Positions 10,445 through 47,242 of a DNA stretch of 64,000 bases are shown here, in pieces. Location of the stretch: positions 14,942,001-15,006,000 of the forward strand of contig NW_026889765.1 in assembly GCF_033153115.1 (NCBI RefSeq), read 5' to 3'. Within the stretch, counting starts at the first letter, position 1. Every line of letters starts with the position of its first letter. The notes beneath the pieces are model-generated. The model was given only the letters and a program-made list of their open reading frames with translations. It ran no database searches and was not told the DNA's origin. This stretch comes from Saccostrea echinata (Eukaryota). A program made the translations under genes and the position numbers.

Positions 10445-13400
10445 TCAATGATAAGAACTCCGTTTGGGACCTTTCGGGGGTTTTCGGTCCCAGATCCATA
10501 ACTGTCGATCTGTTCCCAGGCATTTCTCCATGGAGACGGTCTGGCCATCTTCTGATAGTTCTAGACATCGGTCAGTCATAACATGTTGAATTGTGCCGTC
10601 CTCGAAAAAAAAGTTTAATTTACTTACAAAAGAATAAACATAGAAAGACTATATCCAATAGGAAATACTTCCAGGAAATTAAAGGTTATTTCATTTAACT
10701 CACAGAGACATGCACGCAGCATCGGTGGTGGTGGTGGGTGCTTTGGACATATAATGTCTCATTGTTAATTTAGTATAAACAATGTTCATCGAAAGGGTGG
10801 TTGCCTCCCCCTCCACTATTTTGTACTACATGTACATGTATAGTAAAATTCTTCCGTTTTGACGAAAAAAATTTGGAACCTACATCATGTAATCATCTTA
10901 ACCCCCTGCCCCTCCCTTTCGCCTTTGGATAATTTCCTTTTTCTGGCTTGTCAAAATTGTTTCAGTTTGGTTGTGATTTATTTTTCCGGCTTCCCCCATC
11001 CCGGCACTCACTTCCAAAAACGAATGTCTGAGAGAGCATTATGTCTAGATATATTTGTATAGAGTGTCGATCACTATGAGTCTAATGATTCTAAGTTGAA
11101 TAGTAGGAATATATAATGAGTAGGCCCGTAGTAAGCAATTTCAAGGGGGTGGTGGGTTGGGGGGCACAACCAATTATTTTCAGTTGGGGGGGGGGGGACT
11201 ATCAAGTAAAAATTCCTTGATAAGAAAAAAAGAAAGGTCATCAGGCACAAGCATAACGTACGAGGGGTGATCAAAAAGTTCGCGAACTATCTCTATATTT
11301 ACAAAACCACTCTTCAGATCAGAATGAAATTTGGCACACATATAGTCATCAAACTTCCGCCAGAGTTCGTTTGTACCAAACCAAATCTGTGTGCGGAGAC
11401 GCAGAGGACTATGGGTAGTATGATATAGTCATAATCATGTTCTATAAATAGCAGATGTTACGTAATGTTTTGTTGCATGTTTGTGACGTCACAATGTGAA
11501 AAAGACGTCAATATGTAGATGACTTGTGACAAAAAATGGCTGACACAGTCGTACTCGAGCAACGAAAGGCTTTAAAGTTTAACGTATATCTTGGAAATTC
11601 CTTCGCAGTAGCCTATAATAATTTGTACAAGATTTATGGAGAAAAAAGACTTGCCAGAAGTTCAGTCATTAATTGGATTGATTGTTTAAGTGAAGGAAGG
11701 GAAATGGTTAAAAATGATGTTTTTTCTGGTGCCCAGTGAAAGTAAGCTGGGAAAGAGATGTGTCCTTAGTTGAGCAATTGATTTTGAAAGATCGCCAAGT
11801 TACAGTTAGAAATAAAGTTGAATATCTTAAGAATATTATAAGTATTAAATCCATAAAATACCGTTTAGGTTCATACTTCATGTAAGAAGTCACGAAAATC
11901 AAAAGAAATGGGTAGGTGTTTGGTCTTTGTCCAAGATAGAGCTTCTGGTAAAGTCAGGGGCATTGAGCGGTATTTGTCTAAAACAGAGCTTCTGGTAAAG
12001 TCAGCGGCATTGAGCGGCATTTGTCCAAGACAGTGCCTCTAGTAAAGTCAGCGGCATTAAGCGGCATTTGTCCAAGACAGAGCTTCTGATGAAGTCAGCG
12101 GCATTGAGCGGCATTTGTCCAACACAGAGCTTCTGGTTAAGTCAGCGGCATTGAGCGGCATTTGTCCAAGACAGTGCCTCTAGTAAAGTCAGCGGCATTA
12201 AGCGGCATTTGTCCAAGACAAAGTTTTTGGTAAAGTCAGTGGCAGTGAGTTGCATTTGTCCAAGACAGTGCCTCTGTTAAAGTCAGCAGCATTGAGCGGC
12301 ATTTGTCCAAGACAGAGCTTCTGGTCACGTCAGCGGCATTGTGCGGCATTTCTCCAAGACAGAGCTTCTGGTAAAGTCAGCGGCATTGAGCGGCATTTGT
12401 CCAACACAGTGCCTCTGTTAAAGTCAGCGGCATTGAGCGGCATTTGTCCAAGACAGAGCTTCTGGTAAAGTCAGCGGCATTGAACGGCATTTGTCCAAGA
12501 CAGAGCTTCTGGTCACTTCAGCGGCATTGAGCGGCATTTCTCCAAGACAGAGCTTCTGGTAAAGTCAGCGGCATTGAGCGGCATTTGTCCAAGACAGTGC
12601 CTCTGTTAAAGTCAGCGGCATTGAGCGGCATTTGTCCAAGACAGAGCTTCTGGTAAAGTCAGCAGCATTGAGCGGCATTTGTCCAAGGCAGAGTTTCTGG
12701 TGAAGTCAGCGGCATTGAGCGGCATTTGTCCAACACAGAGCTTCTGGTGAAGTCAGCGGCATTGAGCGGCATTGTCCAACACACAGCGTCTAGTTAAGTC
12801 CAACATGGTACTTCTGCTAAAGTTAGTTGCAAAGTTTAAATAAGTTATATGAAAAGTTGAACTTTTCTCAAAAAAAATGTTTTATTCACTTTTGTACAAT
12901 GAAAATTCTTTTGCCTTAAAAAGAGTCACAGAAGGCCTGAAAAATTAATGTGTGCATAAATAATGTTTTGTTTAGACCAAGGACAGAAGAATCTGAAATA
13001 CAATTGATTCTTTTTCTACTGATAGAATTACTTATAATTAAGATAAGGTTTACCATTCTATCTATGAAAGGCACTGTAAAGATATTTGTTTTTCTTAAAT
13101 GGCAAGGATTTGATCATTAATTAGCATTTATGTTTTTTCCCTTTCTTTTGATCATATTTTCATTAGTACATAGATAATACAATAATATTGATTAAATTGA
13201 CTTCACTAAATAGCATAATCCTGTCCGGTTATCACCCAAGAAGCATGCTAATTAAGCATTACAGTAATGGCAGTCAGATACATACTTATCACCAATGTGT
13301 GATTCTGTCCCAAAATCTTAGCAAGTGTTTAAAACCCTAAAATGATTAGGCACATACTGTTAATCATCTGGCTTCAATATTCTAATTTTCTAAGAAATGT

Positions 13401-16400
13401 AATCATTGATATTGCTTGGTTATGACTATTAACTTAAGGGCATCCCATGCATAAGTAGCAAAAATATATCTTTGATCTTTAATTTTAAAATTAGAAAATA
13501 TGTAAAGAGTCCATAAATTGAGGTACATTAGAAAAAGCTTTACAATGAGATTTGTTTCAAAATTATCACAAAATAGATGTCTAACTTAGCGTCTAAGGAC
13601 TAATTAATGTCCCCCATTCAATACAAGTTAAACCACAAGAAAGAATGCCCCTTCCATATAAGGTCACTACATGAAGAATGCTGCTTATTCTGTATAAGGT
13701 CACTACATGAAGAATGCAGCTCATTCCATATAAGGTCACTACATGAAGAATGCTGCTTATTCCATAAAAGGTCACTACATGAAGAATGCTGCTTATTCCT
13801 ATAAGGTCACTACATGAAGAATGCTGCCTATTTCGTATAAGGTCACTACATGAAGAATGCTGCTTATTCGGTATAAGGTCACTACATGAAGAATGCTGCC
13901 TATTTTGTATAAGGTCACAACCTGAAGAATGCTGCTTATTCCGTATAAGGTCACTACATGGACAATGCTACTTATTCCGTATAAGGTCACTACATGAAGA
14001 ATGCTGCTTATTCTGTATATGCTAATTACATGAAAAACTTCCTCATTCTGTTTATGGTCACTACATGAAGAATGCTGCTTATTCAGTATAAGATCTCTAC
14101 TTGATGAATGCTGCTTATTCCGTATATGCTTATTAGATGAAGACTGCTGCTAGTTCTGTGTTGGACTTTACCAGAGGCACTGTGTTGGACAAGTGCTGCT
14201 CAATGCTGCTGACTTTACCAGAGGCACTGTGTTGGACAAATGCCGCTCAATGCTGCTGACCTCACCAGAAACTCTGTCCTGGACAAATGCCGCTCAATGC
14301 CGCTGACTTCACCAGAAGCTCTGTCTTGGACAAATGCCGCTCAATGCCGCTGAAGTGACCAGAAGCTCTGTCTTGGACGGACAAATGCCGTTCAATGCTG
14401 CTGACTTTACCAGAGGCACTGTGTTGGACAAATGCCACTCAATGCCGCTGACTTTACCAGAGGCTCTGTCTTGGACAAATGCCGCTCAATGCCACAGACT
14501 TCACCAGAAACTCTGTCTTGGACAAATGCCGCTCAATGCCGCTGAAGTTACCAGAAGCTCTGTGTGGAACAAATGCCACTCAATACTGCTGACCTCACCA
14601 GAAGCTCTGTGTTGGACAAATGCCGCTCAATGCCGCTGAAGTTATCAAAACTCTGTGTTGGACAAATGCCGCTCAATGCCACTGACTTTACCAGAAGCTC
14701 TGTCTTGGACAAATGCCGCTCAATGCCGCTGACCTCACCAGAAACTCTGTGTTGGACAAATGCCGCTCAATGCCGCTGAAGTTACCAGAAGCTCTGTGTT
14801 GGACAAATGCCGCTCAATGCCGCTGACTTCACCAGAAACTCTGTCTTGGACAGATGCCGCTCAATGCCACTGAAGTTACCAGAAGCACTGTGTTGGACAA
14901 ATGCCGCTCAATGCCGCTGACTTCGCCAGAGGCACTGTCTTGGACAAATGCCGCTCAATGCCGCTGACTTTAACAGAGGCACTGTCTTGGACAAATGTTG
15001 CTCAATGCCGCTGAAGTTACCAGAAGCTCTGTGTGGAACAAATGCCGCTCAATGCCGCTGACTTTACCAGAGGCACTGTCTTGGAAAAATGCCGCTCAAT
15101 GCCGCTGACTTCACCAGAAACTCTGTCTTGGACAAATGCCGCTCAATGCCGCTGAAGTTACCAGAAGCTCTGTCTTGGACAATTGCCGCTCAATGCCGCT
15201 GACTTTACCAGAGGCACAGTGTTGGACAAATGCCGCTCAATGCCGCTGACTTTACCAGAAGCTCTGTTTTGAACAAATGACGCTCAATGCCGCTGACTTT
15301 ATCAGAAGCACTGTGTTGGACAAATACCATGTTTTGACTCTTTAAATAGAAAAGTTTTTTAAAACATCTTACCCATGATATTACTTAGTACTTGTAGTAT
15401 TCTATAAACTAAAAGTAATGTTTCGTGACTTCTTACATGAAGGAATAGCCTACCGTTTATTTAAGACTTTAAATGTATCAGGTATGATAAAAAGAAGGCG
15501 CCAATACCTTATCCACAATGGAAAAACGACGCACCCAAGACCGAGAAGTCGGGTTGTGATGGCCACCATGCTCATTCTGGGAAAAGATACCCTTATCCAA
15601 CTATCCTATTGACGAAATTTGGCCATTTGTGACAAATGGACTCTTCTTGTTTTAAAAAATACTTGCATGGTAAGAAAATCGTTTAGTTTCCGTGAACAGA
15701 ACACTACGGAGCATGTCACTTGACCGCCTGGATCACGTGATTTGCGCATGGGCAGAACGGTGGCAGATGTGCATTAAAATCGGAGAAGACAACTTTAGAA
15801 AATAATAAACAGCGAAATCTAGTTTTATTTCTTTTATGGAAGTTATTCAATTAGTTCGCGAACTTTTTGGTCACCCCTCGTATGTATAGTATACTACATG
15901 TATATATATTTAGGCAAAATTATGGGGGTACCCCCTCTCCTTCCCAGTTCCTACGACCATGATATGATATACTTGTACGATATCATACCTCTCTGTAAGT
16001 CCAGTTTTGGTTTCCACCGTCTCCATGACAACCGTTGACGAAAACTTCCTGTCCTGAATCGTCTATACAACCATGTAAATCATGACGTATCTCGCCCTTT
16101 CGCGTGTATAACCAGTACTGTGTAAGAAAATAGATTATCCCAGACCAGTCAGTATTTCGCGTGTATAACCAGTACTGTGTGAGAAAGTAATTGTATCCCA
16201 GCCCAGTCAGAATTTTGGATTACGATTGATGGCAGATGTTGCATTGTTATACACGTACTTGTATCCATACATTATGTAACGTACAACAACTATTATTGTA
16301 TCAGTTGAACAGAGATAAAGGGTGACTTCATCGAGTCGTCAATTAAATAACTAAGGCGTGCATCTTGCCATGCATGAAATATATGTGAAATCTTCAAGAT

Positions 16401-19400
16401 GCAATTGTATTTGCAGAAATAAAATTAAGCATTGATTTAAATTTTGATTCTGAGCGTAATTTTCACGTATTTTACTCTAATTTATACATCTTTGTTCAAT
16501 ATCACATATGTTTAACTGTTAAGACTTAACTTTTCTAGCCTACAGTAGTAACCATTTACCTGATTCCCCTTTAGTCCGTGACAATAGAAAAGCTTCAGTG
16601 GTTTATTAACGTCACCGTATCTGTGAGGACTTTCTAAACACAGTGGTTGTGTCTTGCTTCTAATCTAAATGCATTAAAATCAACAAATCAAACACGGATG
16701 CAAATGTATAGTGATTATTTACTATAATTGTAAGTTTTCCTTTAAACTGGATTAACGCAAGAAAACTATGGCACGCCGATTGTTTCAAAATTATTTTCTG
16801 CACGACCTTAAACAAAAATTACACGAGTAAGGAAAAACTTACACAAAGTGAGGAAAATATACACGAAGTTATTAAAATTTACACAAACTATAGAAAAACT
16901 GCACAATCAACAAAATATTTACACGATATAGTGAGGAAATTACACAAAAGTAAAAAAGAAAACTGCACGAGTGAGAATACAGCAGTGACATAATATACTA
17001 CGCATCCTCATTGCGCACATTTCATTAATATTCAGTAGAGAACAGGTCAATGTGGCTTGGATGCTTGAAACATAATACAAAAGGTGGAGTAACGAGTATT
17101 CTTTAAAAAAAAAGATTCTTTTAAAATTCTGCTAGACTCTCAAGAATGTACAACGTATATTATACATGTAGATAAATTGACAGACACGCAATCTTAAACT
17201 TGTAGTATATGAACACCCCCGAATAAAAACATTCTACACAGAATACATGTATAGATAACGTAAAAAAGGGGATGCATATTACAAGTTGTGTGTTTAATTG
17301 TTGGATTTTTTAAGTATGTCATTCCTCTATATAGCAATTTCTTTTGAAAGTTTTGAACACTGACATATATGCCTAAATAAAAATAAATAAAAACAACATG
17401 TGATATAATACAGGAGAGTTAACAACAAATCACACTATTCTCCTCCACCTCCCACTATGTGTACTTTTGGTAATAATCAAGCATGTGCATGCGTGGCCAT
17501 TTCATACAGAGATCTCTCCCTGTTGCATGGTTCTGGAACGAAAAACACCTGTACGCTAATCGATTTATAGCTCTTTGACACACCAATAATACCTTTTGAT
17601 TAAAGATTACTAGCAATTTATACAAAGATTTTGAAGCAATGTTGCGATCATCTGGGTTGTGGAATTTGACCGAAAACGTTTTGGAAGTCAACAGTAAAGA
17701 AAATCGAGTAAATAATTGTTCAACTTAAATTTTAATTTTGAAACGCATATCTCACTTTTTGATGTATGTATGTAACAAAGTAGTAAACAGTAAATGTAGT
17801 CTTAACTTTTGAGCAATGTGTGGTGATTTCATAAAACTCCATGAAAATGTAGATAAAATATACAGTCGTTTTACTTATGTGAATTAAAGCTTTATTTATG
17901 TTGTTTTTAATGTACCGGCGGTAGTCTATTTTGAATAGTTAAAATGCATATAAATGAGTTAAGAAAATTTAAAAATGATAAAGTACAGGCACGTATAGTA
18001 CCGTTTTTGAAAGGGGGTGGGCAGCCAGAATTTTTTTTTTGACAACCTACCTGAAAAAAACGTTGACAAGCAAAATCAAAGTACTGTGAGTACTGATAGA
18101 CGGTGGCATGAATGTTGTTTGTTTTAATAAAAACGACCCTCTCGGGAATTTTTCACTCATAATGAGACGCCACTATTGCCATTGGTGGGCTGCAAATTTT
18201 ATATCTATACTCAGCACTTAGGGCCATTGTGCAGTGAGGGATCTTTTTTTCTGGCAAGCACTTACTGCGACACGGGACCTCAGTTTAACGGTCTCATCCG
18301 AAGGACCGGTCTCCACGTCCCGCAGTGGGATTCGAACCCGCGACCTAAGGATCGACTCCTTACTCCTTGACTCTAGAGCACACGCTCTAATTACTGGCCA
18401 CTGGCATGAATGAATTAAATTAAATAAAACGATATGAGAATCTGTAAAATGATATGGAAATTATGACAGTTTGTTGCAATTTTTCACAATACATGTATTT
18501 GATGAGTTATTTTATATTTGCGTCAGTATGATGAGGACATGTATCAATTGAAGTTGTTAAACAATTTATTGCATGAAATTTTCTATATTTATTTAGTTTT
18601 ATTGTAAAATAATGTTTGAAGAAAAAAAATGTGCTGAAATGCCAGAAACGAAAGCTTGATCATTTCAATCTTTTTTTTTTCATTAATTAATCCTTAAAAC
18701 AATTCATTTTACCCTAAATGTTAAATTAAGGGAATCAAAGGTTCTAATATATTCATGTGGTGACCGAACATATCTATTTTAAGATAGCTTTCTATACATG
18801 CATGTGTGGTTCCATTTAGGCTCTCTTCCAAGTTAGAAGTGCATTTATTTATTTATTTTTTTTTTTTAGCAGAAATGTGTTTGAGATATTTGAGGAACAA
18901 TTTAATAAACCTATTGTGAGTTGCAGATATGAGCGAGTATCAGTAAATTCCGAATTCATTGTACTTTCTTCGCATAATTTGAAAATAATCTTATCAGCAT
19001 GCATTTCAGCGATATCAAGTATCAAATGAAAAAGTTAAATTTTACAACAAAAAGTGTCATGAAGTCGTGGTGTTTTGAAGTTAGAAATTGTGATTTTATA
19101 ATTTAAAATCTTATACTCAGTGGTTTATTATCAAATTTTGCTAATCTGGAATAAAATTAAACTCACAATATTTTTTTTTAAACAAAAACTAACTTTTTCT
19201 TAAAATATATGGTAAAAAGGGAAATGATGAATCACTTTTGGCGTTGTACTGTAGATTGTGCGACATAAATCATATGCTGAAAGATAATGAAATAGACTTT
19301 ATCTTTGGATCTCCATTTTTGCCAAATTTCCAGTAATTTACTTATTTCCATAAGGTTGAAAGACTTCGAGAATTGTACAGGAGTTTTACCTTTTTGTTTG

Positions 19401-22400
19401 ATATATATATACTGTTCGAAAAGAAAAAAAAGAAGAAGAACAGAATAACAAAATAATTTTCACTCTCTATTTCTCTTAATATCTTATTATGCACTGACCC
19501 CGCTAGTCATTGCGTAATACGAAGTTTTGAAAACACATGACTTGTACATGTAGGAGAAGACTGCCCTATATTAAGTCAACTGAATTCGCAAGAAAATCCT
19601 AATATTTCATGTACGTGTATTTGTGTAGCTTTTTTCTTACACTTTTTAAAGGGTAAATTTTATTCGAGGCACGATAGTATTTTCAAATACAATTGAAATA
19701 TATGGGTAACTTTTGTTCGTCACAGTCTTATAATTATAGCTTTGATAAATAAGTATCCTTTCAGTAGTTTTTGTGTCCGAGATAATTAGGCAATGACTTT
19801 TGTTTTTAGATAGAACCGTAATAAACTTTGCAAAATGGCATCGTACCTGCCTTCAACAACTCTTTTTTATGTAAACTTTAAGAGGACGTGATTTTTTTTT
19901 TCATTCCGAAAATATATCTTTTTCTAATATAATATCGTCAACAGATACTAGAAATTCAAATAATCAAAAGACACGTAAAATTTCCATAAACTGTATAAGT
20001 ATTATTGTATAAAAATTCCATAAAACATCTCAAATAAAACATTTAAAGGCCGAGGTTTTCAACCGGTCGGTTTTCCTCAGGTATATATAAGTTTGGTGTG
20101 GGGTGGAGCTTAATTGAAACGGCTGTGAAGCCCCGAGGGAACCAAGCTGGCTTGTGTATACCTACCTATATACACAGGGTGTTACCTGTATATTACCTGT
20201 AAATGTTTTCCTAAGACATAGTTTTACTTCGCGTGTTGGTCAATCGAAATGTTGATCGTCAAATTTATGAAAACATGCTAAATTTTTTATGTAGACTGAT
20301 TCCTTTAGTTCAATTCTTTCTTTATGTTTGAATAAAGGAGAAAATTTTAGTTTAATTTTTGCGTTAATAAATTTCATGCAGTTCTGCAACAAGGAATACG
20401 CAGTCCTCGAATCATGTTAACTGAATTTTTGGAAAATAATGGAGAAATTTGGGGTCGACGCTTTCCAAGCATGGAGTATCTCGTAATTAGGGAATACCAT
20501 ATTGGGAACATCTCGTAATAAGCGTTTGTCACACATCCAACAGCGAAGAAACCGCCGAGAGTGTGTTGGCTTAACAATAATTATTTTATTTGCTAAGATG
20601 GTAAGGTGTAATGTGAAACCATTATCCATAAATATTTTCCCCCAGATTTTTTTTTTTTACTTTTAATAAATTTTATTGAAATTTTACATTTACACAACGT
20701 AAAAAAGGCCATGTGTACGAACTGACTTTTTGCATTTGTTTCATGTTCAGCAAATTTTATGTACGAATTGACTTCTGTGGTTTGCATACGAATTGACTCC
20801 TTATATGCGAATCAGTTTTTGTACGAATTAACATTAAGTCGACGTAATTTAATGAATATTCATGAGGCGAGAAATATTATAACGGCAAATATCTGGAATT
20901 AAACTTTGCGCCCATCAACAAAATGTCATTGAAATAACTTAAGAACAATGTACATTTTATTTTCGAACATCGAAACGACCCCACTTTCATTACTTTGTCT
21001 CTGCAAAAATCGCCGCTAGGGTCCCCGTGATTTTACACTGTTGTTTATTCATCGCCCAGACCAGCAGCAATAGCCTGTGGCTATAAATAGCCACCGTCTA
21101 AAAAGGGTAAAGTGTCCAAATCCAAACTCGAAAATCCTATTTCGTGGAGGGGGGGGGGTCCACCTTCCACTTTCTTTTCGAAACACATTATAATACCAAA
21201 TTACTTTGATTTAAACTATCCTACAACAGAAGGGGGGGGGGGCAACCAGCTTTTCAATGGACATTTACAATAGAAGTAGGTTATGTTTGGAAAAAAGTGG
21301 GGGCCCCTCCTGATGCTTCGTGCCTGAAATATTTTTTTAAGAATTTAAGGGTACATATCATAGTCTATCGAAATCTGGATTGCAATTCATCTGAACTGTA
21401 ATGATATTGTAAGACCAAATTCAAGAAGACATACAAGATGAACTTAATTAGCTGGGACTTGGCTACACATGCATATTTATTTTCAATGCAGATTTTGACA
21501 ATAATAAATTTGCACACGGTAATAAAACAAAGATTTCTTGAGGTTTCTATTCGTCATATGTTTTCTTATACATGTATTTATTCGTAGTCATAATCGAATT
21601 AAAACAAGACCTGGTTGATGCCATTGATACACATGTACAATATTGCTATAAAGCAAACTTTTTAATTACTTGTACATGTATACGTAGATTTGGGTAAAAA
21701 AGTGTTTTTACAAAAAATTAGTGTTCGGAAAATAATTAAAATTTTATGCATACGAATTCGAAATGTAAAGAGAATTTGTTTTTTCTTATTTGTAACATTG
21801 TACGTAGATGTATTTAGTAATTCACTATGTTTTAAAATTTCTGATGTGTCGTTATGGTCCAACGATTTGAAACTTTAATAAATACATAGATTCAGATGTT
21901 GCGACTCAATCAATCCACGAACCAGATCCGCCACTAATGATATGTTTTACCGGTGCCAGGATTATTTGAGTATAGAGTTTTGTTATTTCAGTTGGACAAA
22001 TTTTAAGTAACAAAACACAAAACCGCATGTACATAAAGCACATAGAGTATATATGTTTTCCTATATCTGGTCCTTTTTATTAAAAGTGAAAACATTTTTC
22101 AAGTAATCGCCATTACGAATGAGGGTAACGCTTACCCTTAGGAATGTCTTGTTTTTTTATTGAGTAGTTTATGACTGAAAATATGCGATATCATGGAAGG
22201 AATTCATAACAGTGTAGGCTACAGATATCCAACCAAAATTGATATCCTCATATTTTATACTGATAAAAAAGATACATGTATAAATATACATGTATAATAC
22301 ATTGTATAATTATACATGTATAATATTTAAATAAAATATTTTTTATGTTTGAATTTAAAAACATACTGTGTATATCTAAGGTCAGGTAATCCCCACTTTT

Positions 22401-22461
22401 TAATCTTTTTGAAAATAAAAAAAATATATCCAGCCAACTAAATAATTTCCTATTCCTAAAT

Positions 22462-22497
<36 letters not shown>

Positions 22498-25400
22498 CCC
22501 AAAATGAATTCATAATTAGAACAAATGAGAAGTACCAAAATAAATTCTACAATTTAATGATTACAATCAGCAATTCTGCCATCATTTTCATGAAGAATCC
22601 ACTTTATTAATCGTTTTATTACGCATGTGTTAATTTTATTTTATACAAGTACTGCTCGTGCAGTTTTTGATTTTACGTTTGTGCATTTTATACCCCTTAA
22701 TCGTGTGAAAAATTTCGGATTCGTGTATTTTTCGTTATGTTTGTGTTAAAATCTTTCAAACTATGTACAATTTTTACCGATACGTGCATTTTCATTTTAC
22801 TCGTGTATATTTTTCATCATGCTCGTGTATAAAATCGCGATCGTTGTGCAGAAAATAATTTTGAAGCAATCGGCGTGCCATAGAAAACGCTAAAAACAGA
22901 ACTGAAGGTACAAAGTTGTTAAAAACATGCAATTGAAAATGACATTTTTACAAGATTTATACTGCTGACTAAATATATTGACTGGCTTTATAATTTGGCA
23001 ACTAATTATAATGTAAACCCGTTTTAAGTATTAGAACATGATAAAAAAATTATAAATCTGTTAAATAAAAGATTTTGATATATAACGCTTTTTTTCAGTG
23101 ACTAACCTCCCCTGAATATAAGGCTTCAGCAGGAACAATGAGTTCTGGGTATACATTGACAAGGAACCAATCAAAACTTCTACACTTTAGTCTTTCTCGT
23201 AGAGATTTTCGTGATGAGACGTCGCCATAGTCGCCCTTCAATATCAACATGAAACTTCCGGGTTTAATTCACATAATTTAAATTATGTTATTATTTAAAG
23301 TTAATAAACCCTCTGCTCACTCATATTAAATGTTGCTTTAAATCCTATGAATTTCCAAAATAAATGTTTTTTGTAAAGTAAAATACAAACAATTATAGCA
23401 GAGCTTGCGGGGCAAAATTGGACAAAAAAGGATGATTCAACTTGACAAATTTATAAAGGAATAGTAGACATGTATGTCATTAGGAGTTTTCTCTCTTCTC
23501 AGTGTATGAAGAACTTTAATATTTTCATGATTCAATGCTCAACATACTTATTATTTGTTTCTTGAAGCTTAAATTCAACAGTAAAAATATGGAATCAGCG
23601 TTCAACTTACAAGGGTGTAGTTAATATGTTGGTAAAAATATTCTTTAAATTCGTCAAGCCACACTTCCGCCATGCGCACATTATTGTTTCTCACAACATT
23701 GGCCTTTGACCCCCACGAGTATGGCGGAGACTTTCGGAAAACATGACCAATATGAGAACAGGGAGCTGTAAGAAGTGTCCCACCACACATCCAAATCTGA
23801 CACAAAAGTTATCTCAACAGTGATTTCGTGGTACGTTTACTCAGTTAACTACCCACTGTGTGAAATGTGAGGAAAACGAACAGTAAATGATGCTCAATTA
23901 AGTTTAATTAAACGATACAAATTGTGAGCAAAGCAAACATAGTGATGTCACCTTCCTTCAAAATAAAGTGATACGCTAGATTTAAGCATATCGTTTGTGG
24001 AGTAGATCAAAGAGATAACGTGCTTGAAATTTAAGAGACAAAATCGATCATATAATTTAAGTTTATCATCTTCAAAAAGTTTGCAATATTAAATGAACGT
24101 CAGTTCTAATATCCTTTTCTTGTCCCTACAAGCTACTTATGTTTTATCAATACAAATACCCTGAATGAGATTTCTAGGTTCTCTCCTCCCCAGATGTCCA
24201 TGCCTTCATCATAGGTTCCGAGGTACTCAAAGTATTTTCTGCTGATGGCGAATAGTCCCCCTGCCATTGTAGGTGACCTAGAGTATTGGAGAAGAAGTCT
24301 GATGACCAAAATCAACAAACTCCCATGGATCAGAGAGAGTTAACTGAAGGTACTTCGGTGCTTTAGACATAAATAGTCTGACCGGAGAAAGAAAACAAAA
24401 GGCCCATGAACGACCACTTAAGGATCATGAGGAGTAAAGAAGGTTTTCAAACATGTAATGTACTTGTACTTTCAATATGTGGCAAACCACCCAGAGATCT
24501 GAACGCTGTGGCCATGAATCATGAATTTTACAATTTTGGTAAAGGGGTAAGTACTCATTGTAATCATGAGAATAGTTTACTTAATATTTGGGTAAAAAGA
24601 GCTTCAAAGGTGCAATATATCACAAACTTGATGCAATGGGCCAAGGGGTCATGAATTTCAAATCTGAAGAAGGTTTAGAACTTATTCAAATCATGGAAAC
24701 AGTTTGCCTGCTCTATGACCATGAGTAGAAAAGAAGAATTTTTAAAGTCGTAATTCTGTATTTTCAGGTCGATCTCAAAAAACCAACAAACAATACAAAT
24801 CTGTGAACGGGGCATAAAACACGGAACCCTGGTGGGATCAGGTGCCTAGGAGGAGTAAGCATCCCTTGTCGACCTGTCACATCTGCCGTGAGTCCTATGT
24901 GTTGATCAAGTAGACGGAATAATCCGTAGTAAAATTTAATATAAACAAGATACACAGGGGCCACAACGCTCACCTGAGTAACAATGGCCCCTCTGTTCTT
25001 CATCAGCAGATTTTTTCCCTTCAATTTCTTATGTAAAACTTTGTTCACTTTTTATGGCCCCATCCTAACCGAGGGGTCATGATTTGAACAAACTCGAATC
25101 TATACTACCTGAGGATGCTTCCTTATAAATATGACTAATCATGGCTCTGCTGTTCCTGGGGAAAAGATTTTTAAAGACTCCTCCTATATATTCCCATGTT
25201 TAACTTTTTTCTGCCCCACCCTACACATGATTTTGAACAAACTTTAACCTACATGTACACTACCTGAGGATGATTTCATAAAAATGATTGATCATTAGAT
25301 CATCTCCGGAAATAAAGAATACTGTATTATTTTTGATGGATTTTGACTCATTCCTCAGGTCCCAAGGTATAGAGACACCATGAAAATAACAAACTTCGTT

Positions 25401-27833
25401 CCCATCTTCCCATTGATGCAATATACCGACAAAATCCCACACATTATACTTCACCTGACTGGCAGATGGTGCTGATATTTTCGACGTTTTTTCTCAGATT
25501 CAGGAATTCCATGCCATGTAAAAGACAGTGACCAATCAAATCCACCGACACTAGTCGTCTCAGCAGGTAGAAAGGAGTACTGAAATGTATCGCTATCTAT
25601 GACGTCAATAACAGGGGTCATGACTGTAGTCCAGTTCTTGGCTATTGGGTCTATCAGGGGTTCTACCCACCCTGTTAAATATTGACAGTATGAAACATTG
25701 ATAAATCTTTCGTGTCTTTTGGCATCTAGTAGCGAACATTTACGGAGAAAGCCAGAAGTCTCTAATGAGACTACCTCTACTGGTTAGAATTCACGATCGT
25801 TATTCACTTGCACATATTCTTATATCACTTCTTTTTGTGTTTTACATTAAATGAGTTATGTATTCTAATAGTTTCTAAACTTAAACTTACACGTATTAAG
25901 TAGATTAGCATTTTGAGAGAATTTGACATTTACATTCTATTTCAGTAACCGTTGCAATACCATCAAAATCAATTACTTAATACACTCTTCTCTTCCTAAT
26001 GATTTTATTTAAAGGACGAGTAGCTTTTTTATGCTTTTCAAATAATCCTATTTTAGTAGCCATGGCATTCATCGAATTCAAAAAGCAGTCATGAAGGCAC
26101 CTTGATATAGTCTATTGGCTTACAATGTTTTATTGAAATTAGACTAAAAAGTAGTAGAACAAAAAGGTATTCTCTTATAAGTAACCAAGGCAACAGAATT
26201 ATTCAGAATTAAAAGCACATAATTATAACAATTTATATATCTTGGTGTAGTCTATTTAAAATAAAATCGAACCACAGCTTTAGGAGAAGTACAAAGAATT
26301 CATAACATTAGCCATGTACAATGTATCTCAACATCTTTTGTTGATATAAATCAAACAAAAACAATAGCAGGAGGATTTGCATTTTGAAAAATTGTTTACG
26401 GACGAAGAAATGAACATACCTAATTAATACATAAGCTCTTTTGGCCTACGATCAATAGAGTTAAAAAAAAGTGTTTACCTTCTGTGCATTCGATGTGAGA
26501 ATCAAGAAATACGACAATTTCTCCAACTGCTGCTTTATAACCTAAGATACGCCCTCGTGTTAATCCCTGTCGCCTAGGGGCTCGAATTAATTTAACTTTC
26601 TTAAATCTAATCAGAAACTCTTCTAATGGACCCTTAAGATGCTCTATCAAATAAAGAAGCCAAAAAATTAATATGAATACATGTAAGCATTTAGATTATC
26701 TTTGATGGGCTTGAAAGAAAACCCTTTATCCTGGAATTTCATTACTATTTCTTTACTCACCCATAGTTGAAAAATCGTCTACAAGGATAACCTCTTTTAA
26801 TAGAGAAGGGGGTGTTCTATTTAGTATGCTGTAGATACTGCGTAGGAGGACACTCCAAGCCTCGTTATGAAATGTAATCACCACGCTGACTTCCGGTAAA
26901 TTATTACTGTATTTGACTGTGAGGCATCTAAAACCATTAAGACCTTAGCTGGTTTATTTTTTGTCTTGTTTGAGGTTATAGTGATTTTTTTTTATATGTT
27001 CAAGATGTCAAGGTTATCTTTCATTCAGACTTTGTATAACATTTCAGCACTTCAAGGTGTGCTAACAAAAGAGAAACAGAAGTTGTTGAAAAATGTTTTG
27101 TAATATATTCGTTCTCTTAAAGTTATCATCATTGGTTGTCTGAGAGAACTTCTAGACAAGGAAGTTTGCTACAAGAAAGGGCTATCCAATGCATTTACGA
27201 ACTTGTAGAAATTTCCGTGTTTTTAGAATTGCTTTAAAACAAAGATACAATGATCGTAACATACTCACTGTTTGTCTCTGTAATCCAGTAGTGTTCGCTG
27301 TACGGATATTTTGTTGCTTACAAACTCATTGAAATTATTTATTCTCCAACCCTCTTCAAACTCCAACTTTTCTTCTGGCGTTAACAGTGATTTATTTACT
27401 TTAAAAGGTTTACCCAATTCTCCTGTTGCAAGAAGAATTAAATTATCATCATATTTAATAGAGAGGAGGAGTTCCAAATAGCTTTTGAAAAATACTGTAT
27501 TGCTAAAGAAAAAAAATTATTGTATTAATGTTCATTTCTGAATAGTGTACCTGGACCATTTGTATCCATAACAGCTTTATATCTGGGCTCAGAATCATCT
27601 AAATTATCGTCAGTCACTATCCTGCTCCCTCGTCGCTGCTGCCCATGAATTAAAACATGTTGATCACTTGAGAAATTACGTCCAACCAGTCTTTCACTGA
27701 AAATGTCAACTTCCTTCGGAAAATTTGAATTTTGTATTGGAGACGGCAGATAAAAGAATTTAGTTACAAATAAAGTAACCGTTGAAATGATAATTCCCCT
27801 CTTCAAATATCTTTTTATGTAGCGGTAGTTCAT
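10445..27833 (-). CDS. GALNT: Polypeptide N-acetylgalactosaminyltransferase, paralog A (~602 aa; resembles the gly-5/pgant9 group)
   Basis: 11 exons: 27551-27833, 27269-27422, 26761-26927, 26479-26643, 25455-25671, 24160-24277, 23611-23796, 23107-23235, 16560-16664, 15989-16117, 10445-10600 (1809 nt, phases consistent). Type II TM anchor, [15 protein letters not shown] (DxH), [17 protein letters not shown], three ricin-B lectin subdomains. Confidence 0.95.
11536..11850 (+). pseudogene. Mariner transposase N-terminal fragment (frameshifted)
   Basis: ORF 11536-11739 resembles the mariner HTH region and continues after a frameshift. Confidence 0.8.
11927..12805 (+). repeat. 47-bp tandem array (~19 units), left arm
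   Basis: Unit TTGTCCAAGACAGAGCTTCTGGTAAAGTCAGCGGCATTGAGCGGCAT. Confidence 0.97.
13640..14150 (+). repeat. 36-bp tandem array (~14 units)
   Basis: Unit ATAAGGTCACTACATGAAGAATGCTGCTTATTCCGT. Confidence 0.95.
14158..15329 (-). repeat. 47-bp tandem array (~25 units), right arm, inverted
   Basis: Reverse complement of the 11927-12805 unit (ATGCCGCTCAATGCCGCTGACTTTACCAGAAGCTCTGTCTTGGACAA). Confidence 0.97.
16098..16211. repeat. 57-bp tandem duplication spanning the exon 10 splice acceptor of GALNT-A
   Basis: TTTCGCGTGTATAACCAGTACTGTGT..ATCCCAG(A/C)CCAGTCAG occurs twice, 57 bp apart. Confidence 0.9.
16766..22883. mobile_element. 6.1-kb CTATGG-ended element with TIRs and subterminal ~21-bp repeats, in GALNT-A intron 8
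   Basis: ~38-bp TIR CTATGGCACGCCGATTG(T/C)TTCAAAATTATTTTCTGCAC; AAAA TSD on both sides; AAAAATTACACGAG-like repeats at 16810-16975 and inverted at ~22600-22845. Confidence 0.88.
18115..18401 (-). mobile_element. Deu/Nin-domain tRNA SINE
   Basis: Reverse complement of the 5918 family; TSD TGGCATGAATG (18104-18114 / 18402-18412). Confidence 0.9.
24390..25440 (-). mobile_element. HINE-like fragments plus a Naiad/Penelope 3' fragment (~24770-24940) in GALNT-A intron 5
   Basis: AACAAGA..GGGGCCACAACGCTCACCTGAG terminus at ~24945. GGTGGGATCAGGTGCCTAGGAGGAGTAAGCATCCC is the reverse complement of the Naiad 3' end seen at ~63130. Confidence 0.65.
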
Positions 27834-30083
27834 AGTTTGGATTAAAGCCAGTATAAAATCTCTCGTCTTGATTCAAATAGATCCACACGTTGGCATTGAA
27901 ACAGATGTCACAATAAAGTATCAAATTACATCTTAAGTTTGGTCAGATGAAGTTTTACAAAGGATGTACCTGATTAAAACGTCCCAAACTCTTGTACATG
28001 TATCTATGAGTAGATAGCTTAAAAAGTATTATTAAGAAGAAAAAAAGAAAATATTTTTAAAAATTCAATGACTTCAGGCCACAATTTCTTTTTTACAATG
28101 GTCAGCTTTATAAACAATGTAATCGATGAAAGTATGTGCTAAACAACGCAGAAGAGACAAGGCGGCAGCTGATAGCATAATCTCTGTTACCTTATAAAGA
28201 CAATTCATCAATATACAACACTTTGTAAAAGAGGGTAAGCTGTTCTGAGGAAGTCAACCAGTATTTATCAACAGATAATATCTGACAAGGTGTTTTGTTC
28301 TGGATAAAGGTCTTTGTAACCACTACTAGCTGTTATTATGCAATGTAGATTTGTAATAAATACAGGTAAATGTATTTGCAAAACTATTATTATTAAAAAA
28401 AAGTGCCTGAACTATAGACACCCTTATCCATATACAAAAAAATTGTCTTACAAGTCTTTCAATGTCAAATATCTACAGTGGACAGAAATAATACAAGTAG
28501 ATTCATTACCCATATAAATGTTTTGTATATATGCAACTAATGCTGTTTTTTTGATTCCGGAAGTCGACATGGTGGCGATGGCCGAATAATTTCTCGGCTC
28601 CGCCGACTAAGTGGATTAACAGTCGATAAATTCGGCTTTCTGACTAGAAAAAGTTGCACAACTTTCTCTTTGTGAACTGGACCATCTTTCTTGCAACTTT
28701 TTTCTTGTCAGAAAACTGATGTACATATTGAACCGACAGAAGTAGTTGCCATACATCGAATACCCGGTCAGAAAAAACAACCGAAACCGATCTTGATAAA
28801 AATGAGTACAGCCGAGGCAAAATCCAAAATCATGCGAAAGCGATCCGAAGTGAAAGACGAAGAAAAGGGGTGGCGGATCGCGGATAATGTAACCAGAGAA
28901 AATACAGCACTGATTGCTAAGCTGAATGAGCACCACAAAATTTCCGCCACATGGTATTTTAATGGTTTCGTTTATGGGCAGTGCGGAAAGAAAAGAATGA
29001 AATTTGAAAAAATAGTTTTGCGTGGACTCGGTTTCACAGTTGGTGACATGATGAACTTTCCGGTTGTGAAGGACACAGCTCAGGTGAGGAAAAGAACTAC
29101 CTGCAATTGTTTATTGAAATAAAACGTTAAAACCACTTAGTGGTGGGCTAGCAGTGGACAAGGAATTTATCAAAGTTTTCTTTTTTTTCTTTTTTGTATG
29201 TGGATATGTGCTTTGTGTGTGTGTTGATATGTGTCGTTTTCTTTTTGTTTGCATGTATTTGTTGCGACTGGAAGGTTATATTTATACTCATGTATCATCA
29301 GATCATTGTCCCTTTTCTCACCAGATTTTTTCTCTCTTCTGCATTAAACAATGAGCATTAAGATGATGTCCCTCAATTGCAGATGGTTAGGTTCTATGGA
29401 GAAAAGAAGAGATGTATTGAACTTCCTTACACAAAAGCAATATTCAATTTATTTCGTACAAGATACAGATTTTACTGTAAAAGATTATGAACAAATTAGA
29501 GCTTTTTGGGAATTCAACGTTTATTTTTCTCCTGGAAAATCTGATGCCAGAGGCACAGCAATACTCCTAAATAATAATTTTGAACATAATGTTAAAAGTG
29601 AATTGAGAGATAAGAGGAGAGAAACTATATTATACTTGAAATTAATGTGTGTAACAAATATGATTTTTTACTTATTAACATATATGGTCCAAACAAGGAC
29701 TTTCAAGATTTTTTTCAGTCTATTTCTGACATCATTTCAAATTTTGATGGAGAATTTGTTATCACTGCTGGTGACTTTAATCTTGTTCAGGATCCAAATC
29801 AAGACTACTACAATTATAATCAAGTTAACAATAAAAAAATCTAGAGATGTTGTTTTAAACATAAAGGAAGCAAACAATCTTATACAGATCCCTGGAGGGT
29901 GAAATACGAGACACTCCGAAGGTATACATGGTTCAAAAATAATCCAATAAAAAAAGCCAGACTAGATTTTTTCTTAATATCAAATGAATTAATGCCTTTT
30001 GTAGAAAAACCATTCTATGACCATTCTATTGTTGAGCTGTTTATATCTTTTTCAAATTTTGTAAAAGGAAAAGGATTTTGGAA

Positions 30084-36515: not shown

Positions 36516-38937
36516 GTAAATATCATGTTTGTAAAGGAAAACAAATCAAGTGACAAAAGAAAACAAACAATGCGAGGAATATTAAATCCAAATAGAAATA
36601 TGCAGCTAAAGATAGTTTTATAGAAAAGAAACTAACTTCCTGACATTGTTCTAACAAAACAGACCAGGTATGGTTTTCTGTATTTTAAAAACATATGAAG
36701 GTTGCAATAATGGAGTTAACAGTTTCTTGGGATGAGAGATACCGGTATGGCGAAGGCAATGAAACAAAAAATTCGAAATATAAAGATCTGATGGCTTTGT
36801 TCGAGACATAGAATGGCAAACATGGGGCTTTCCTGTCAAGTTTGCCTGCAGCGGCTTCCCTGTACATGTGTGGAGGATGTTCTCTGTGCTAGGCCGTGAA
36901 AGAAGAATGACTGATCAGAAAATAGAAAAAGAAGGCATCCTCCTGGAAGAAGTTTACGTTTTGGTGTATGGGATTGAGTAGTGAGAAGTTATTCAGAATA
37001 ACACATACATTAAAAAGATTATACATCAAAATGTTCCAAGGCACTATAAGTATGCATATGTGAGAATTCTAGAAAACACACGACAGCAACTGTGTTGAAA
37101 TCTGATTGGCTTAGATTGAAGGTATTTCTAACTTTCTAAGTTTTTTAACGCAAGAAGACGAAATTCAGAGTATATGAAAATAAATTATTAATACAAGTCT
37201 CTTCAATATGGAATCATCAGAAATGAGTTCGAGGGCATGCATGCACGTGTGCTGAATTCTGATTAGTTAATATTCAACGTTTTCTAGTGAAATTCTTTGA
37301 AATTTAAAATGTAGCTCTTTATTACGACATACTATGAGATGATGTACATGTAACGTATATGCATGCACGTGTACTTAAATTAAATAGGACTGTGCTCATT
37401 TTATTATATGTGCGTTGTTATTTCCCAAAAATGCTTTAGAAAATAGTTTTCAAAAGTCTATAATACAAAGATTTTGCTTAATTTAATGAAGCTTATAGGG
37501 AATGGGACACCAAAAGGGAGTAGGGGAGCGTTTGGGGAACATCTGTGACGGTCTCCGTTACAATTAGAACTAGTTTTGACTGACATACTTCACACTGATT
37601 GTTAGGCCTTTGTTAGCTTTGCTGTCCGAATCCGTCTGTCTGTCCGTCCTTCTGTAAACAGTTTTTCAACTCGCAACTCCTTCTACAGGTTTGGTTTGAT
37701 TTCAATAAGACTTCGTGCACAATCAGACTTTTAAAGATATATAATTCTAAGTACCGGTTTTTGATTTCGACGAATTGTGTTGCCATGTTTTCTAAAACTG
37801 GAAATGTGTTTGAGATTCTTTCAAAACATTACCCTTTCTACAGTTTTTGGTCTGATCTGAATTAGAATTGGTAAAGTACATAATGTACAAGATATAATAC
37901 ATACTAACATACGTAATTCTAAGTATCGGTTTATGTGAATATTTTTTTCCCAAAACCCTAACTCTTCCTACAGTTTTTGCCCAGTTTCTTGGTACATAGT
38001 TGGTACATAGGTAAACTTTATGGAAATACGTGATTCTATATATGGGTTCTGATTTTCGACAAACTGTGTTGCCTTGGTTACTAAAAATACAAATTCTGTT
38101 AATTTCGTCAAATTGCTATTCTCTTACAGTTTTTGTTTGATTGCAATTAGAATTAGTACACAGGTAGACTATACTAAAATACAAAATTCGGTATATCAAT
38201 TTTTGATTGATGGCAATGTTCCTATGGTTACTAAAAATAGAAATATCTCAATGACACCTCAATACAACTTGGTTAAAGTCGTTTGTCACCGAAAGGCTAA
38301 ATGTGATTGGCTGAGAGAAAAGAAAAGTAAGCCTGATTTATAATTTCCTCTTAAAGAAATAGCTGCATGCTTGGAAAAATGATGAAGTTTGTCGGGGATT
38401 TCAGGGCCACAAGTGGACTCAGGACCCCTGACGTTGTGAAGATATATAGCCCAAAAAGATTTATTCCTCACCAGAAAAATCGCTACACAAATCCAGAAGA
38501 AATGGAACATGAAGCAGAGTATTAAGTTGAAAAGATACTAATAAAATCAAAACTCAAGACAGGCAGATTAATCCTTGGGAAAGAAAATCTGGATCTCCCG
38601 TCACAGGGAACTACAAATTTACACCAGTTTATTACTATCTTTCAGCAGCGTATTGGCGATTGAAGGCCTTTTTTTTAAATAAATAAAACAATAAATGTAA
38701 TAGAATTAACAAAGACATTGACCTTAGAACCTTGCAAACTTAAGTAGAAGTCTGTCTATCAGAGCAGTGGGCAGTTAACACGATTTTGTAATAATGATAT
38801 AAATAATGCTCTTGCAGCTAAATGATCCTAGAATCTCCCACTTATTTCAGGTAATGTAGTTCTATGATTGTAATAGTCACTGTCGCACAGTGGAATATGA
38901 AAGAAAATTAGCTCGATGAAGTGAATGATTGATGAAA

Positions 38938-39739
38938 TCAAAGAGCAAAGGTGCGTTTGGGACCTTTCGGTGGTTTTCGGTTCCAGATCCATAGCTGCCG
39001 ATCTATACCCAGACATTTTTTCATAGAAACATACTTTCCGTCTTCTGATAGTTCTAGACAACGGTCACTTCCAACACGCTGAATTGTATTGTCCTAGAAA
39101 GAAAAAAATACAGAATTATACAGAACACCCCAAAACTCATTTAAAATCAATTTCAAAAGCCAAGATTTAGAAAAAACGACATTGAATCGGAATACATTTG
39201 ACAACTGTAAAATAAAAGAGGAACAATCCAGGCCCTATTGCTGGTAACTCCTGGCGTCATTCGTTTATAGCAATTATGTAAGTTCTACCTTTACCCTTGT
39301 CTCACTTCTACATATGACTTTCCACTTAGCAACGTCACATTTAACAAATAATTAAAAAATATGAGTATAAATCGTTTGTTACGGATGCTAGATATAACCT
39401 CTCGATAAGTCCAGTTTTGATTTTCCCCTTTTCCGTAACAACTGTTGACAAATACTGTCTGAGCAGTGTCGTCCATACAACCATACAAATCATGGCGAAT
39501 CTCACCATTCCGAGTGTACAGCCAATACTTAAATAACAAAAAATCAATCTTATCCAGCAAAAGAAATTATCTAAAATGATGAATTGCAATACTCTACATA
39601 ATATTGTCTATTTATTTGTAGTTTACAATTATGCATACTAATTGTTGAATAACTATGGTTTAGAATTGCTGAAGAATAATTGTATTAGCTAAATACAAAT
39701 TTATATTGTTTTGACTTGCATGTTTGGTTATCACATTCT

Positions 39740-39796
<57 letters not shown>

Positions 39797-45533: not shown

Positions 45534-46022
45534 TGTGAGAAATAAGCGTCTCGTAATTTAATTCAGTTATAACTCCACGTGTTAAATCTATAAAGAATGT
45601 CACGTGTTAAATTATCTCATATCTTAACTTGCATCTCATTATCAAGGAAACGCTTACATGTATGTAAAGATATAAATACATTCTACATTCACTTTTAGTT
45701 CAAGGAATAGTAATTCATTATTATACTATGAATTTTATAAATTCAACAAACTGAATAAGACATTTTCTTTTACAGTTGTTGACATGTGTGAATAATGTAA
45801 TCAATGGGACACAATACAGGGCAACAGCTGACTGCACGAACCTTCACAAGTCAACATCCGTAAATATCTTTTCTTTAGATCAATGCACAAACGTAGACAT
45901 ATATCATATCGACCGGTATAAAAAAAAATCGTATACAACAGTTTTAGTCTTTGGCACCGCCCTTTTTTCAGCTCTTCATTTTTTTAAATTAAGTATTTCG
46001 GATTTCCAATGTTTCGGCATGA

Positions 46023-46066: not shown

Positions 46067-47242
46067 ATGAAATTGGTACCGTAAAAATTTTACATACATC
46101 GTGCTTACCAATAAAGGCCTTTTCGTCCACCTTAAGAAGAATGTTTTGCTGACAAAGTCTAATCCACGTGAGCGCTCTCACCTCGTCTGTGACGATGTCA
46201 AATGAATTTTGACTAGTCTTGAAAGAGAGAAATAGTAGAAATGAAATACGAAGATAACGAACAGTAATCAAGCTCAAAAGTCCATTGAAACAAAACAAAT
46301 CTAGAGCAGAGCAAACACTTGATAAAAAGTAACGGAGGAGCCCCCCTTCTCCCCCATCAACTGCGTGCCTGTTAATTTAACATATACATGTATATGCAGA
46401 AGGGATGATCTAAAAACCAAAAAAAAAAGTAAATTCTAAAAATTCCATATCTAACGCTATGGTCAAGTTTATCCCAAACATATGTATAAAGTGGTTGAAG
46501 AAACGACACATGAAATATTAAATTATATTCATCAGGATGAAGTATAAAAGATAAAGTATGTACTTACTCTAAATCATTACTCTAGCTGCTTATTGTAAGT
46601 ATAAGAACAAAGGTGAACTGATCATTAGATCAAAATTCAAATAAAATGAAATGTAATGTGATATATTGGTGCGTACATAAGATGGGCCCCAGAGGAGACA
46701 GACCTTATTACCAAGAATTTAATAAGAAATTCTATAAATATCGCCAAATCAATTTTACTTTGGCATCATTCCAGTTTTTTAGCAATCCCCATCTTTATTG
46801 TAAAAACATTGCGATTTTAAGAACGTGGCACAGCTACTATAAAGTGCAATATATGCACCACTGAATAGCACGTGTCAAATTATTCTCTGTTCAACCCGCA
46901 ATTTATCAGATGGTTCAGTTCTGAAATCAAATAGCTATAAAATGTCCATAGGGACATTGATAATAATGCAATCCATTTCAAATCAATAATTAATGTTATA
47001 ATTATAATAATTGAAGTCTGTTTATGTATATAGAGGTTCAGTTGCTTTGAGTCGCATATATTCAACTTTAATTTTGTGAAAATCTAGTTCAGCTAAATTC
47101 TAGTACCATACACACACACCGTTGCTTAAAAGTCATCACCTTTGTAGAATAACCAAAATATTAACTGAGAGAAAATGTGGAATCTTAATTGAGGTCAAAC
47201 TAAGTTGAAATGTGGTCAAAATAGAATGTTGGAAATAGAAAT

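Follow-up and report, generated by a model that had tools for sequence, protein, structure and literature searches.

What moves a transposon whose two arms are built from satellite-like repeats, and to which superfamily does it belong? The question is raised by a foldback element in a 64,000-nucleotide stretch of the Saccostrea echinata genome (contig NW_026889765.1, positions 14,942,001 to 15,006,000 of the forward strand; hereafter the window). A first-pass annotation, made from the letters alone, had placed the element at 11921..15329, with TGGT..ACCA ends and a 4-bp target-site duplication (TSD), and could not assign it to a superfamily. Our results indicate that it is very probably a non-autonomous Mutator-type foldback, moved in trans by a DDE transposase whose broken gene survives on contig C9. 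The puzzle of its superfamily disappeared because the earlier boundaries and TSD were wrong.

The ends common to dispersed copies with differing flanks delimit an element of 3583 bp (11868-15450) that begins with GG and finishes with CC, 53 bp further left and 121 bp further right than first proposed. The copies agree past the earlier ends, and divergence begins only outside a 30-bp terminal repeat. The TGGT..ACCA ends and the 4-mer read as a TSD are internal sequence that is constant in the 14 compared copies, apart from single-base variants in a few of them, and an exact 9-bp TSD flanks the corrected boundaries. The features that define these boundaries are as follows.

11868..15450, no strand assigned: the whole non-autonomous, non-coding foldback element; its ends are common to dispersed copies, and contigs of other mariner copies stop at 11867
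11859..11867, plus strand: left copy of the 9-bp TSD, an exact match to the right copy
15451..15459, plus strand: right copy of the 9-bp TSD, an exact match to the left copy
11868..11897, plus strand: end A, a 30-bp terminal inverted repeat (TIR), 26/30 identical to end B, with 13 exact matches in the genome
15421..15450, minus strand: end B, a 30-bp TIR, 26/30 identical to end A, with 17 exact matches in the genome
11256..15885, plus strand: dead mariner, the insertion target, with TIRs at 11256-11289 and 15852-15885 and a Mos1-type HTH_48 match (E 0.003); many related copies in public contigs

Mariner copies that lack the insertion confirm the left junction. In all four sequencing runs examined, contigs derived from other mariner copies break off at 11867, and the loose end of one contig at this position matches 15460-15489 at 26 of 30 bases. 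Since that match starts at 15460, the empty site holds one copy of the TSD.

A search of the 923-Mb genome gave at least 31 matches to the unique spacer and at least 275 to the arms, 150 of which were listed. The 47-bp arms were found at 28 places, which count as at least 26 sites because two pairs have common flanks; 17 copies, at 16 sites, are two-ended, and the other places are one-ended or truncated. These dispersed copies, laid out as end, arm, spacer, arm and end, bear out the initial view that this is a family of foldback DNA transposons with satellite-like arms. An exact TSD was found in 13 of the 17 two-ended copies (12 of the 16 sites), six sites having 9 bp and the other six 8 bp; a single mismatch was seen in three further copies, and in the C9 copy 6 of 9 bases agree. 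By arithmetic at even base use, the chance of an exact 8-mer match is about 1 in 65,000. The two-ended non-coding copies are approximately 0.6 to 6.1 kb long, and unit numbers vary as in type-2 foldbacks, from 5 to 18 in arm A and from 1 to 33 in arm B (13 copies), the inner 36-bp array having 9-59 units in the other young copies counted. Since most spacers are 92-97% identical, the main burst of the family was fairly recent; the window copy is 97% identical to its nearest relative.

Some loci depart from the common layout: a nested inverted copy with two B ends (L064:3212-5631), a tandem pair of A ends alone (L133:3774-3866), and a mini copy of about 0.6 kb with an 8-bp TSD and no spacer (L132:3003-3560). 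Locus pairs on different contigs with identical flanks (L052/L054, L071/L076, and the matches on C5 and C36) suggest retained haplotypes or segmental duplicates in the assembly.

Within the window element, end A (30 bp) is followed by a 28-bp linker, arm A, an 850-bp spacer, a 36-bp array, arm B, a 95-bp linker, and end B.

11898..11925, plus strand: end-A linker, not inverted, constant across copies; contains the left 'end' and 'TSD' of the first-pass annotation
11926..12800, plus strand: arm A, 18.6 copies of a 47-bp unit (Tandem Repeats Finder) with two AGC(G/A)GCATT motifs per unit, 10 bp apart
12801..13651, no strand assigned: unique AT-rich spacer, homologous to the C9 region between arm A and the transposase start
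13652..14151, minus strand: inner array, 13.9 copies of a 36-bp unit over 500 bp (Tandem Repeats Finder), with the same 9-bp motif in the orientation of arm B
14164..15325, minus strand: arm B, 24.7 inverted copies of the 47-bp unit (Tandem Repeats Finder), the reverse complement of the arm-A unit
15326..15420, minus strand: end-B linker, not inverted, constant across copies; contains the earlier right 'end' and 'TSD'

The unit counts agree with the approximately 19 forward and 25 reverse units reported before, and GCGGCATT is indeed present twice in each 47-bp unit. As had also been stated, the spacer holds no recognisable open reading frame (ORF), no transposase being coded there, but the 36-bp array at 13652-14151 had been missed, as had the dead mariner around the element. 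The two arms are about 89% complementary. The motif AGC(G/A)GCATT occurs 74 times in the element versus twice in the remaining 60 kb of the window, and it always points inward from the nearer element end: arm A has 30 copies, every one of them forward, whereas the 36-bp array and arm B together have 44, every one reverse. Because its motifs run the same way as those of arm B, the 36-bp array acts like an inward continuation of that arm. An older copy contains many units of 37 bp, with one motif copy fewer, and such units are also frequent at inner ends, which suggests that the 47-mer was derived from the 37-mer through a 10-bp motif duplication. The sub-variants noted earlier do occur in both arms, but the higher-order repeats and the exchange between arms that they had been taken to indicate are weak. 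In a test of higher-order periodicity spanning 12 non-independent copies, lag 3 of the left arm lay about 3 standard deviations, and lags 4-5 of the right arm about 2, below shuffles; in the test of exchange, which gave a borderline result, the own arm ranked 4.8 of 12 on average (p ~0.05).

The link to an enzyme was provided by a longer copy with a transposase gene between its arms, of the kind that the first-pass annotation had proposed to look for. A stretch of 27.5 kb on C9 is bounded by both arms and both exact termini (C9:35062492-35090046; loci L077-L080, L141 and L142). The gene starts about 1.2 kb inside arm A and reads inward; its successive parts are an N-terminal segment, an interruption of 1.9 kb, a DDE segment, a frameshift, and a segment matching OTU (E 1e-8) and MSL2-CXC (E 1e-5), and contigs of the sequencing runs cover small parts of it only. 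The window spacer aligned with the DNA upstream of this gene at 306 identical bases of 374 (score 184 versus 84 for the best shuffle), and on C2 another arm adjoins part of the 3' end of the transposase gene. The C9 element carries other cargo as well: a fragment of reverse transcriptase from a long interspersed nuclear element (L077:7857-8744), a 3-kb stretch between inverted 21/42-bp arrays (L078:5498-8532), and an ORF of 120 aa with no match in Pfam and no usable match in Atlas (L078:9070-9429).

A search of longer proteins gave 83 homologues of this transposase; the named ones come from cnidarians and a sponge, and their annotations go no further than 'uncharacterised' or 'OTU-domain' protein. 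Across all 31 full-length homologues compared, D278, D352, D374xxH377, W435 and E479 are invariant, and the Cys and His of the OTU domain are nearly so. The members are 813-1062 aa long; OTU matches were obtained in 20 of 32 and MSL2-CXC matches in 7 of 32. Mutator-like elements (MULEs) are defined by (C/D)xxH located 15-45 aa after the second D and by a W upstream of the E (PMC5499845). The DDE triad and both of these features, which are shared with hAT, are present in the C9 enzyme family, not in the window copy.

In a structural model of one homologue (P0013, pLDDT 80), the catalytic fold is nearest to that of IS256/Mutator enzymes. Foldseek ranked ISCth4 first (E 7e-6), and ISCth4 was also the top DDE match by VIA (Z 15.7, rmsd 3.1, 263 residues aligned), with Hermes (Z 9.0, rmsd 6.1, 244 aligned) and Transib (Z 8.1) lower. 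ISCth4 (IS256/Mutator, PDB 6xg8), the nearest solved DDE fold, is a bacterial protein with about 10% identity to the family and has neither OTU nor CXC. The conserved N-terminal C/C/H residues gave no Pfam match to FLYWCH, SWIM or C2H2 zinc fingers, and the N-terminal domain model (pLDDT 88.8) had no structural match at Z>=2, which has no bearing on the novelty of its fold.

The element itself fits the same assignment. Mutator TSDs are 8-11 bp, and exact ones of 8 or 9 bp were found at 12 of the 16 two-ended sites; the long TIRs with G/C termini are represented by GG…CC, a 30-bp outer TIR, and inverted arms of about 0.9 kb. The 8/9-bp TSDs and GG…CC ends, together with the linked DDE/DxxH transposase, point to Mutator. 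Particular groups fit less well. No FLYWCH domain was found in the 32 members at E<=0.1, and their 813-1062 aa with OTU differ from the approximately 500 aa of Phantom enzymes. The PHD finger found in the Rehavkus transposase (PMC6446971) gave no match in the 32 members.

Several points weigh against the assignment to Mutator or against the role of the C9 gene. The Pfam matches to MULE and Transposase_mut are below cut-offs (E ~0.003), and ISL3 scores higher. The C9 gene is broken by the 1.9-kb interruption, which is an intron or an insertion, and by the frameshift, which precedes the catalytic E. Among the candidates scored in the assembly none was an intact autonomous copy, the searches giving lower bounds, and the other transposase matches are fragments without arms; the remnants on C5, C36 and C9 have neither 47-bp arms nor a nearby DUF3987 gene. 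The C9 element also lacks a clean TSD and stands at the junction of a tandem P450 duplication, and it may for these reasons be a rearranged hybrid. The duplicated segment, which carries a cytochrome P450 gene, is roughly 9 kb long, and its breakpoints are no more than about 100 bp and 12 bp away from the copy; the duplicates are 93-95% identical, with palindromic filler on one side, and the element may have caused the event.

These points leave some room for the same element having been moved by another enzyme, of hAT or P/Galileo type, with the C9 gene as a passenger between the arms, although we consider this improbable. Half of the exact TSDs have the hAT-like length of 8 bp, but 8- and 9-bp TSDs are also mixed in Muta1, a Phantom-group MULE of Aedes aegypti with repeat-built TIRs (PMC5499845). 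DxxH is not confined to MULEs, Galileo is a P-family foldback (PMC3169594), and the TSD of the C9 copy is not clean. A passenger gene is nevertheless hard to reconcile with a non-autonomous spacer homologous to the DNA just upstream of that gene, with a second arm (C2) abutting a piece of the same gene, and with relatives elsewhere that likewise lie between inverted arrays. As to hAT, which has a fixed 8-bp TSD and short TIRs, the TSDs here are of 8 or 9 bp, no hAT Pfam match was found in the 32 members, and Hermes is well below ISCth4; as to P elements, there was no THAP match in the 32 members and no P-element chain among the 50 fold matches listed, a comparison that speaks neither for nor against P/Galileo.

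The position of the insertion raises the question of whether it was kept for a host role.

10601..15989, minus strand: approximate last intron of a GALNT gene, holding the mariner and the foldback, with ricin-lectin exons on both sides and Glycos_transf_2 exons upstream (splice sites read)

The ricin-lectin exons on either side agree with the earlier placement of the element within a GALNT intron; contigs of two sequencing runs end at 10603, by the intron edge. The GALNT-sense strand folded in silico with 815 long-range pairs, a figure obtained without a shuffle comparison, so that a double-stranded RNA stem in the GALNT pre-mRNA, as first suggested, is possible. A cruciform, the other structure suggested, is unlikely because the arms are 89% identical and 1.35 kb apart. 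That the stem affects GALNT splicing or editing and was retained for this purpose is very unlikely: the last-intron position and the predicted fold would accord with such a role, but the copy is young (97% identical to its nearest relative) and lies inside a dead transposon, and the intron at the equivalent position of the window's GALNT paralogue is short.

Even less credible is an ordinary satellite array that is locally inverted or misassembled. Some loci are one-armed, but the layout of end, arm, spacer, arm and end recurs at 16 sites, mostly with TSDs, and a terminus, spacer or 36-bp array stands beside the arm at every place examined among the 150 listed of 275 matches. The faintest alternative is an element with TG…CA ends and a 4-bp TSD, Ginger-like or of no known superfamily: a 4-mer does flank the arrays in the window copy, and Ginger1 has 4-bp TSDs, TGT ends and OTU domains (PMC2836005), but the 4-mer and its context are identical in copies at unrelated sites, divergence starts only outside 11868 and 15450, where the 8/9-bp TSDs sit, neither the window element nor its copies show a 4-bp TSD with TGT ends, and an integrase-type fold is not the top match of the transposase model. 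This version was ruled out by the comparison of copies, the 8/9-bp TSDs, and the empty-site contigs.

The architecture of a foldback MULE is already known from Muta1, Tm1 and Tetris, and the window copy is an ordinary non-autonomous Mutator foldback. Like Muta1 and Muta1NA1, it belongs to a type-2 foldback family with 8- or 9-bp TSDs, a GG…CC motif, subterminal tandem repeats, non-autonomous copies whose two ends differ in repeat number, and, in the linked transposase, the (C/D)xxH and W motifs. Unlike Muta1, this family has arms of 0.9-1.5 kb made of 47-mers (versus a 145-bp TIR of 12-mers), dissimilar linkers with an inner 36-bp array, and a linked transposase family of about 1000 aa with DUF6729, OTU and CXC (versus 504 aa). 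Tm1 (PMC3169594) and Tetris (PMC4079207) are likewise low-copy, mostly non-coding foldbacks with modular repeat TIRs and 8-10-bp TSDs that have been assigned to Mutator. Their repeat units differ, however, and in those sources Tm1 has a FLYWCH Phantom transposase and the transposase of Tetris is given as unknown. MuDR-6_HM of the cnidarian Hydra (MULE group 14; PMC6446971) is listed with an OTU gene, and the named homologues of our clade include cnidarians; it may or may not belong to the clade, the comparison being by listing, not by sequence, and it is listed there without TIR or TSD. Among curated bivalve MULEs, a start of GG and short repeats is frequent (PMC10294476), and TIRs as long as 1.2 kb are known from arthropod MULEs (PMC13359780).

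Literature searches, with Repbase, Dfam and some supplements outside their scope, gave no description of the family or of the combination of DDE-OTU-CXC, foldback and DUF3987; among the papers listed in the respective searches, none contained DUF6729 and none DUF3987. Motif look-ups gave no match in the C. gigas satellitome supplement, nor was a 47- or 36-bp unit present in its rows up to CgiSat44; they also gave none in 15 of 33 supplements of PMC10294476, in which long sequences are shortened and of which the largest text file was outside the scope.

The mechanism that we propose builds on the ends, TSDs, dispersed copies, empty site, variable arm lengths and common spacer read directly from the DNA, together with the catalytic residues and the modelled fold of the transposase family. 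The element would be moved in trans by cut-and-paste, with staggered insertion over 8 or 9 bp. By analogy with Muta1, in which additional subterminal repeats give stronger binding and higher excision and in which the flank is left with a hairpin after cleavage (PMC5499845), the transposase would cut at the 30-bp ends, and the arrays may serve as banks of putative binding sites, represented by the 9-bp motif, and thereby increase both binding and excision. Slippage or unequal exchange would lengthen or shorten the arrays. The OTU domain is a predicted active deubiquitinase, and DNA binding is a possible role of the CXC domain; for other transposons it has been proposed that OTU domains steer ubiquitin-controlled repair (PMC2836005).

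Relatives of the transposase were then considered in metagenomes, where 80 of 122 confirmed loci were kept and grouped into 42 lineages at 85% DNA identity; no relative was found in viral contigs. A flanking tandem array was present in 15 of the 42 lineages and in 12 of the 18 with long flanks. Arrays on both sides were found in four lineages, one of which rests on combining two contigs, and were inverted in all four (units of 9, 17, 17 and 20 bp). The contigs end in or near the arms, and TSDs are unreadable there. L167 contains an apparently uninterrupted ORF of 1078 aa between two inverted arms.

In 7 of the 80 loci (five lineages), the transposase has as its neighbour either an ATPase-like DUF3987 gene or a fragment similar to the C-terminal part of such a gene, and the C9 element contains pieces of a homologous gene. 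Walker A- and B-like motifs are kept in this gene, the product of which may be a helicase; a sequence search of PDB with it gave calbindin matches only (E 0.02). A partnership with the transposase is called into question by L167, which has both arms and no DUF3987 gene, and by the varying orientations relative to the transposase, the co-occurrence having no background rate for comparison. Two other DUF3987 genes in the genome lie between different inverted arrays, with no clade transposase within the 30 kb examined. In a foldback-like family (L231:2100-8360 and L234-L235), inverted 8/16-bp arrays surround a DUF3987 gene with one internal stop, and no clade transposase is nearby. We also observed a relative whose long TIRs take in the 3' end of its DUF3987 gene (L164), and a locus, L214, that resembles an internal deletion of an L164-type relative with most of the DUF3987 gene gone.

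Elsewhere in the window, 10400-27900 and 38800-45600 hold two tandem GALNT paralogues on the minus strand. An exon edge of the first carries a 57-bp duplication (16098-16215), and the last intron of the second is short and without mariner. At 9284-9948 lies another foldback, small and AT-rich, whose inverted 21/42-bp arrays are separated by nearly no spacer. Judged by eye from translations, exons at 2581-3700, 47200-51600 and 52600-55200 resemble a ligand-gated ion channel, a G-protein-coupled receptor and a CUB/EGF protein, respectively.

What is less known than the foldback architecture is the occurrence, in the transposase clade, of flanking arrays in 15 of 42 lineages and of the DUF3987 neighbour in five. 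We tentatively suggest, as a possibility that is still doubtful, an unnamed animal-wide Mutator lineage with satellite-armed foldback ends, a DUF6729-DDE-OTU-CXC transposase, and an optional DUF3987 P-loop ATPase/helicase partner gene. An anonymous satellite-armed foldback is now tied to a specific transposase clade, and a candidate 9-bp binding motif is common to three repeat periods (36, 37 and 47 bp), so that the origin of satellites from binding-site arrays becomes directly testable. Since apparently uninterrupted relatives exist, L167 among them, assays of what the OTU domain and the DUF3987 partner do become feasible. If the suggested lineage is real, it would represent a cut-and-paste transposon of eukaryotes that brings along its own deubiquitinase and an ATPase helper and seeds new satellites from arrays of binding sites.

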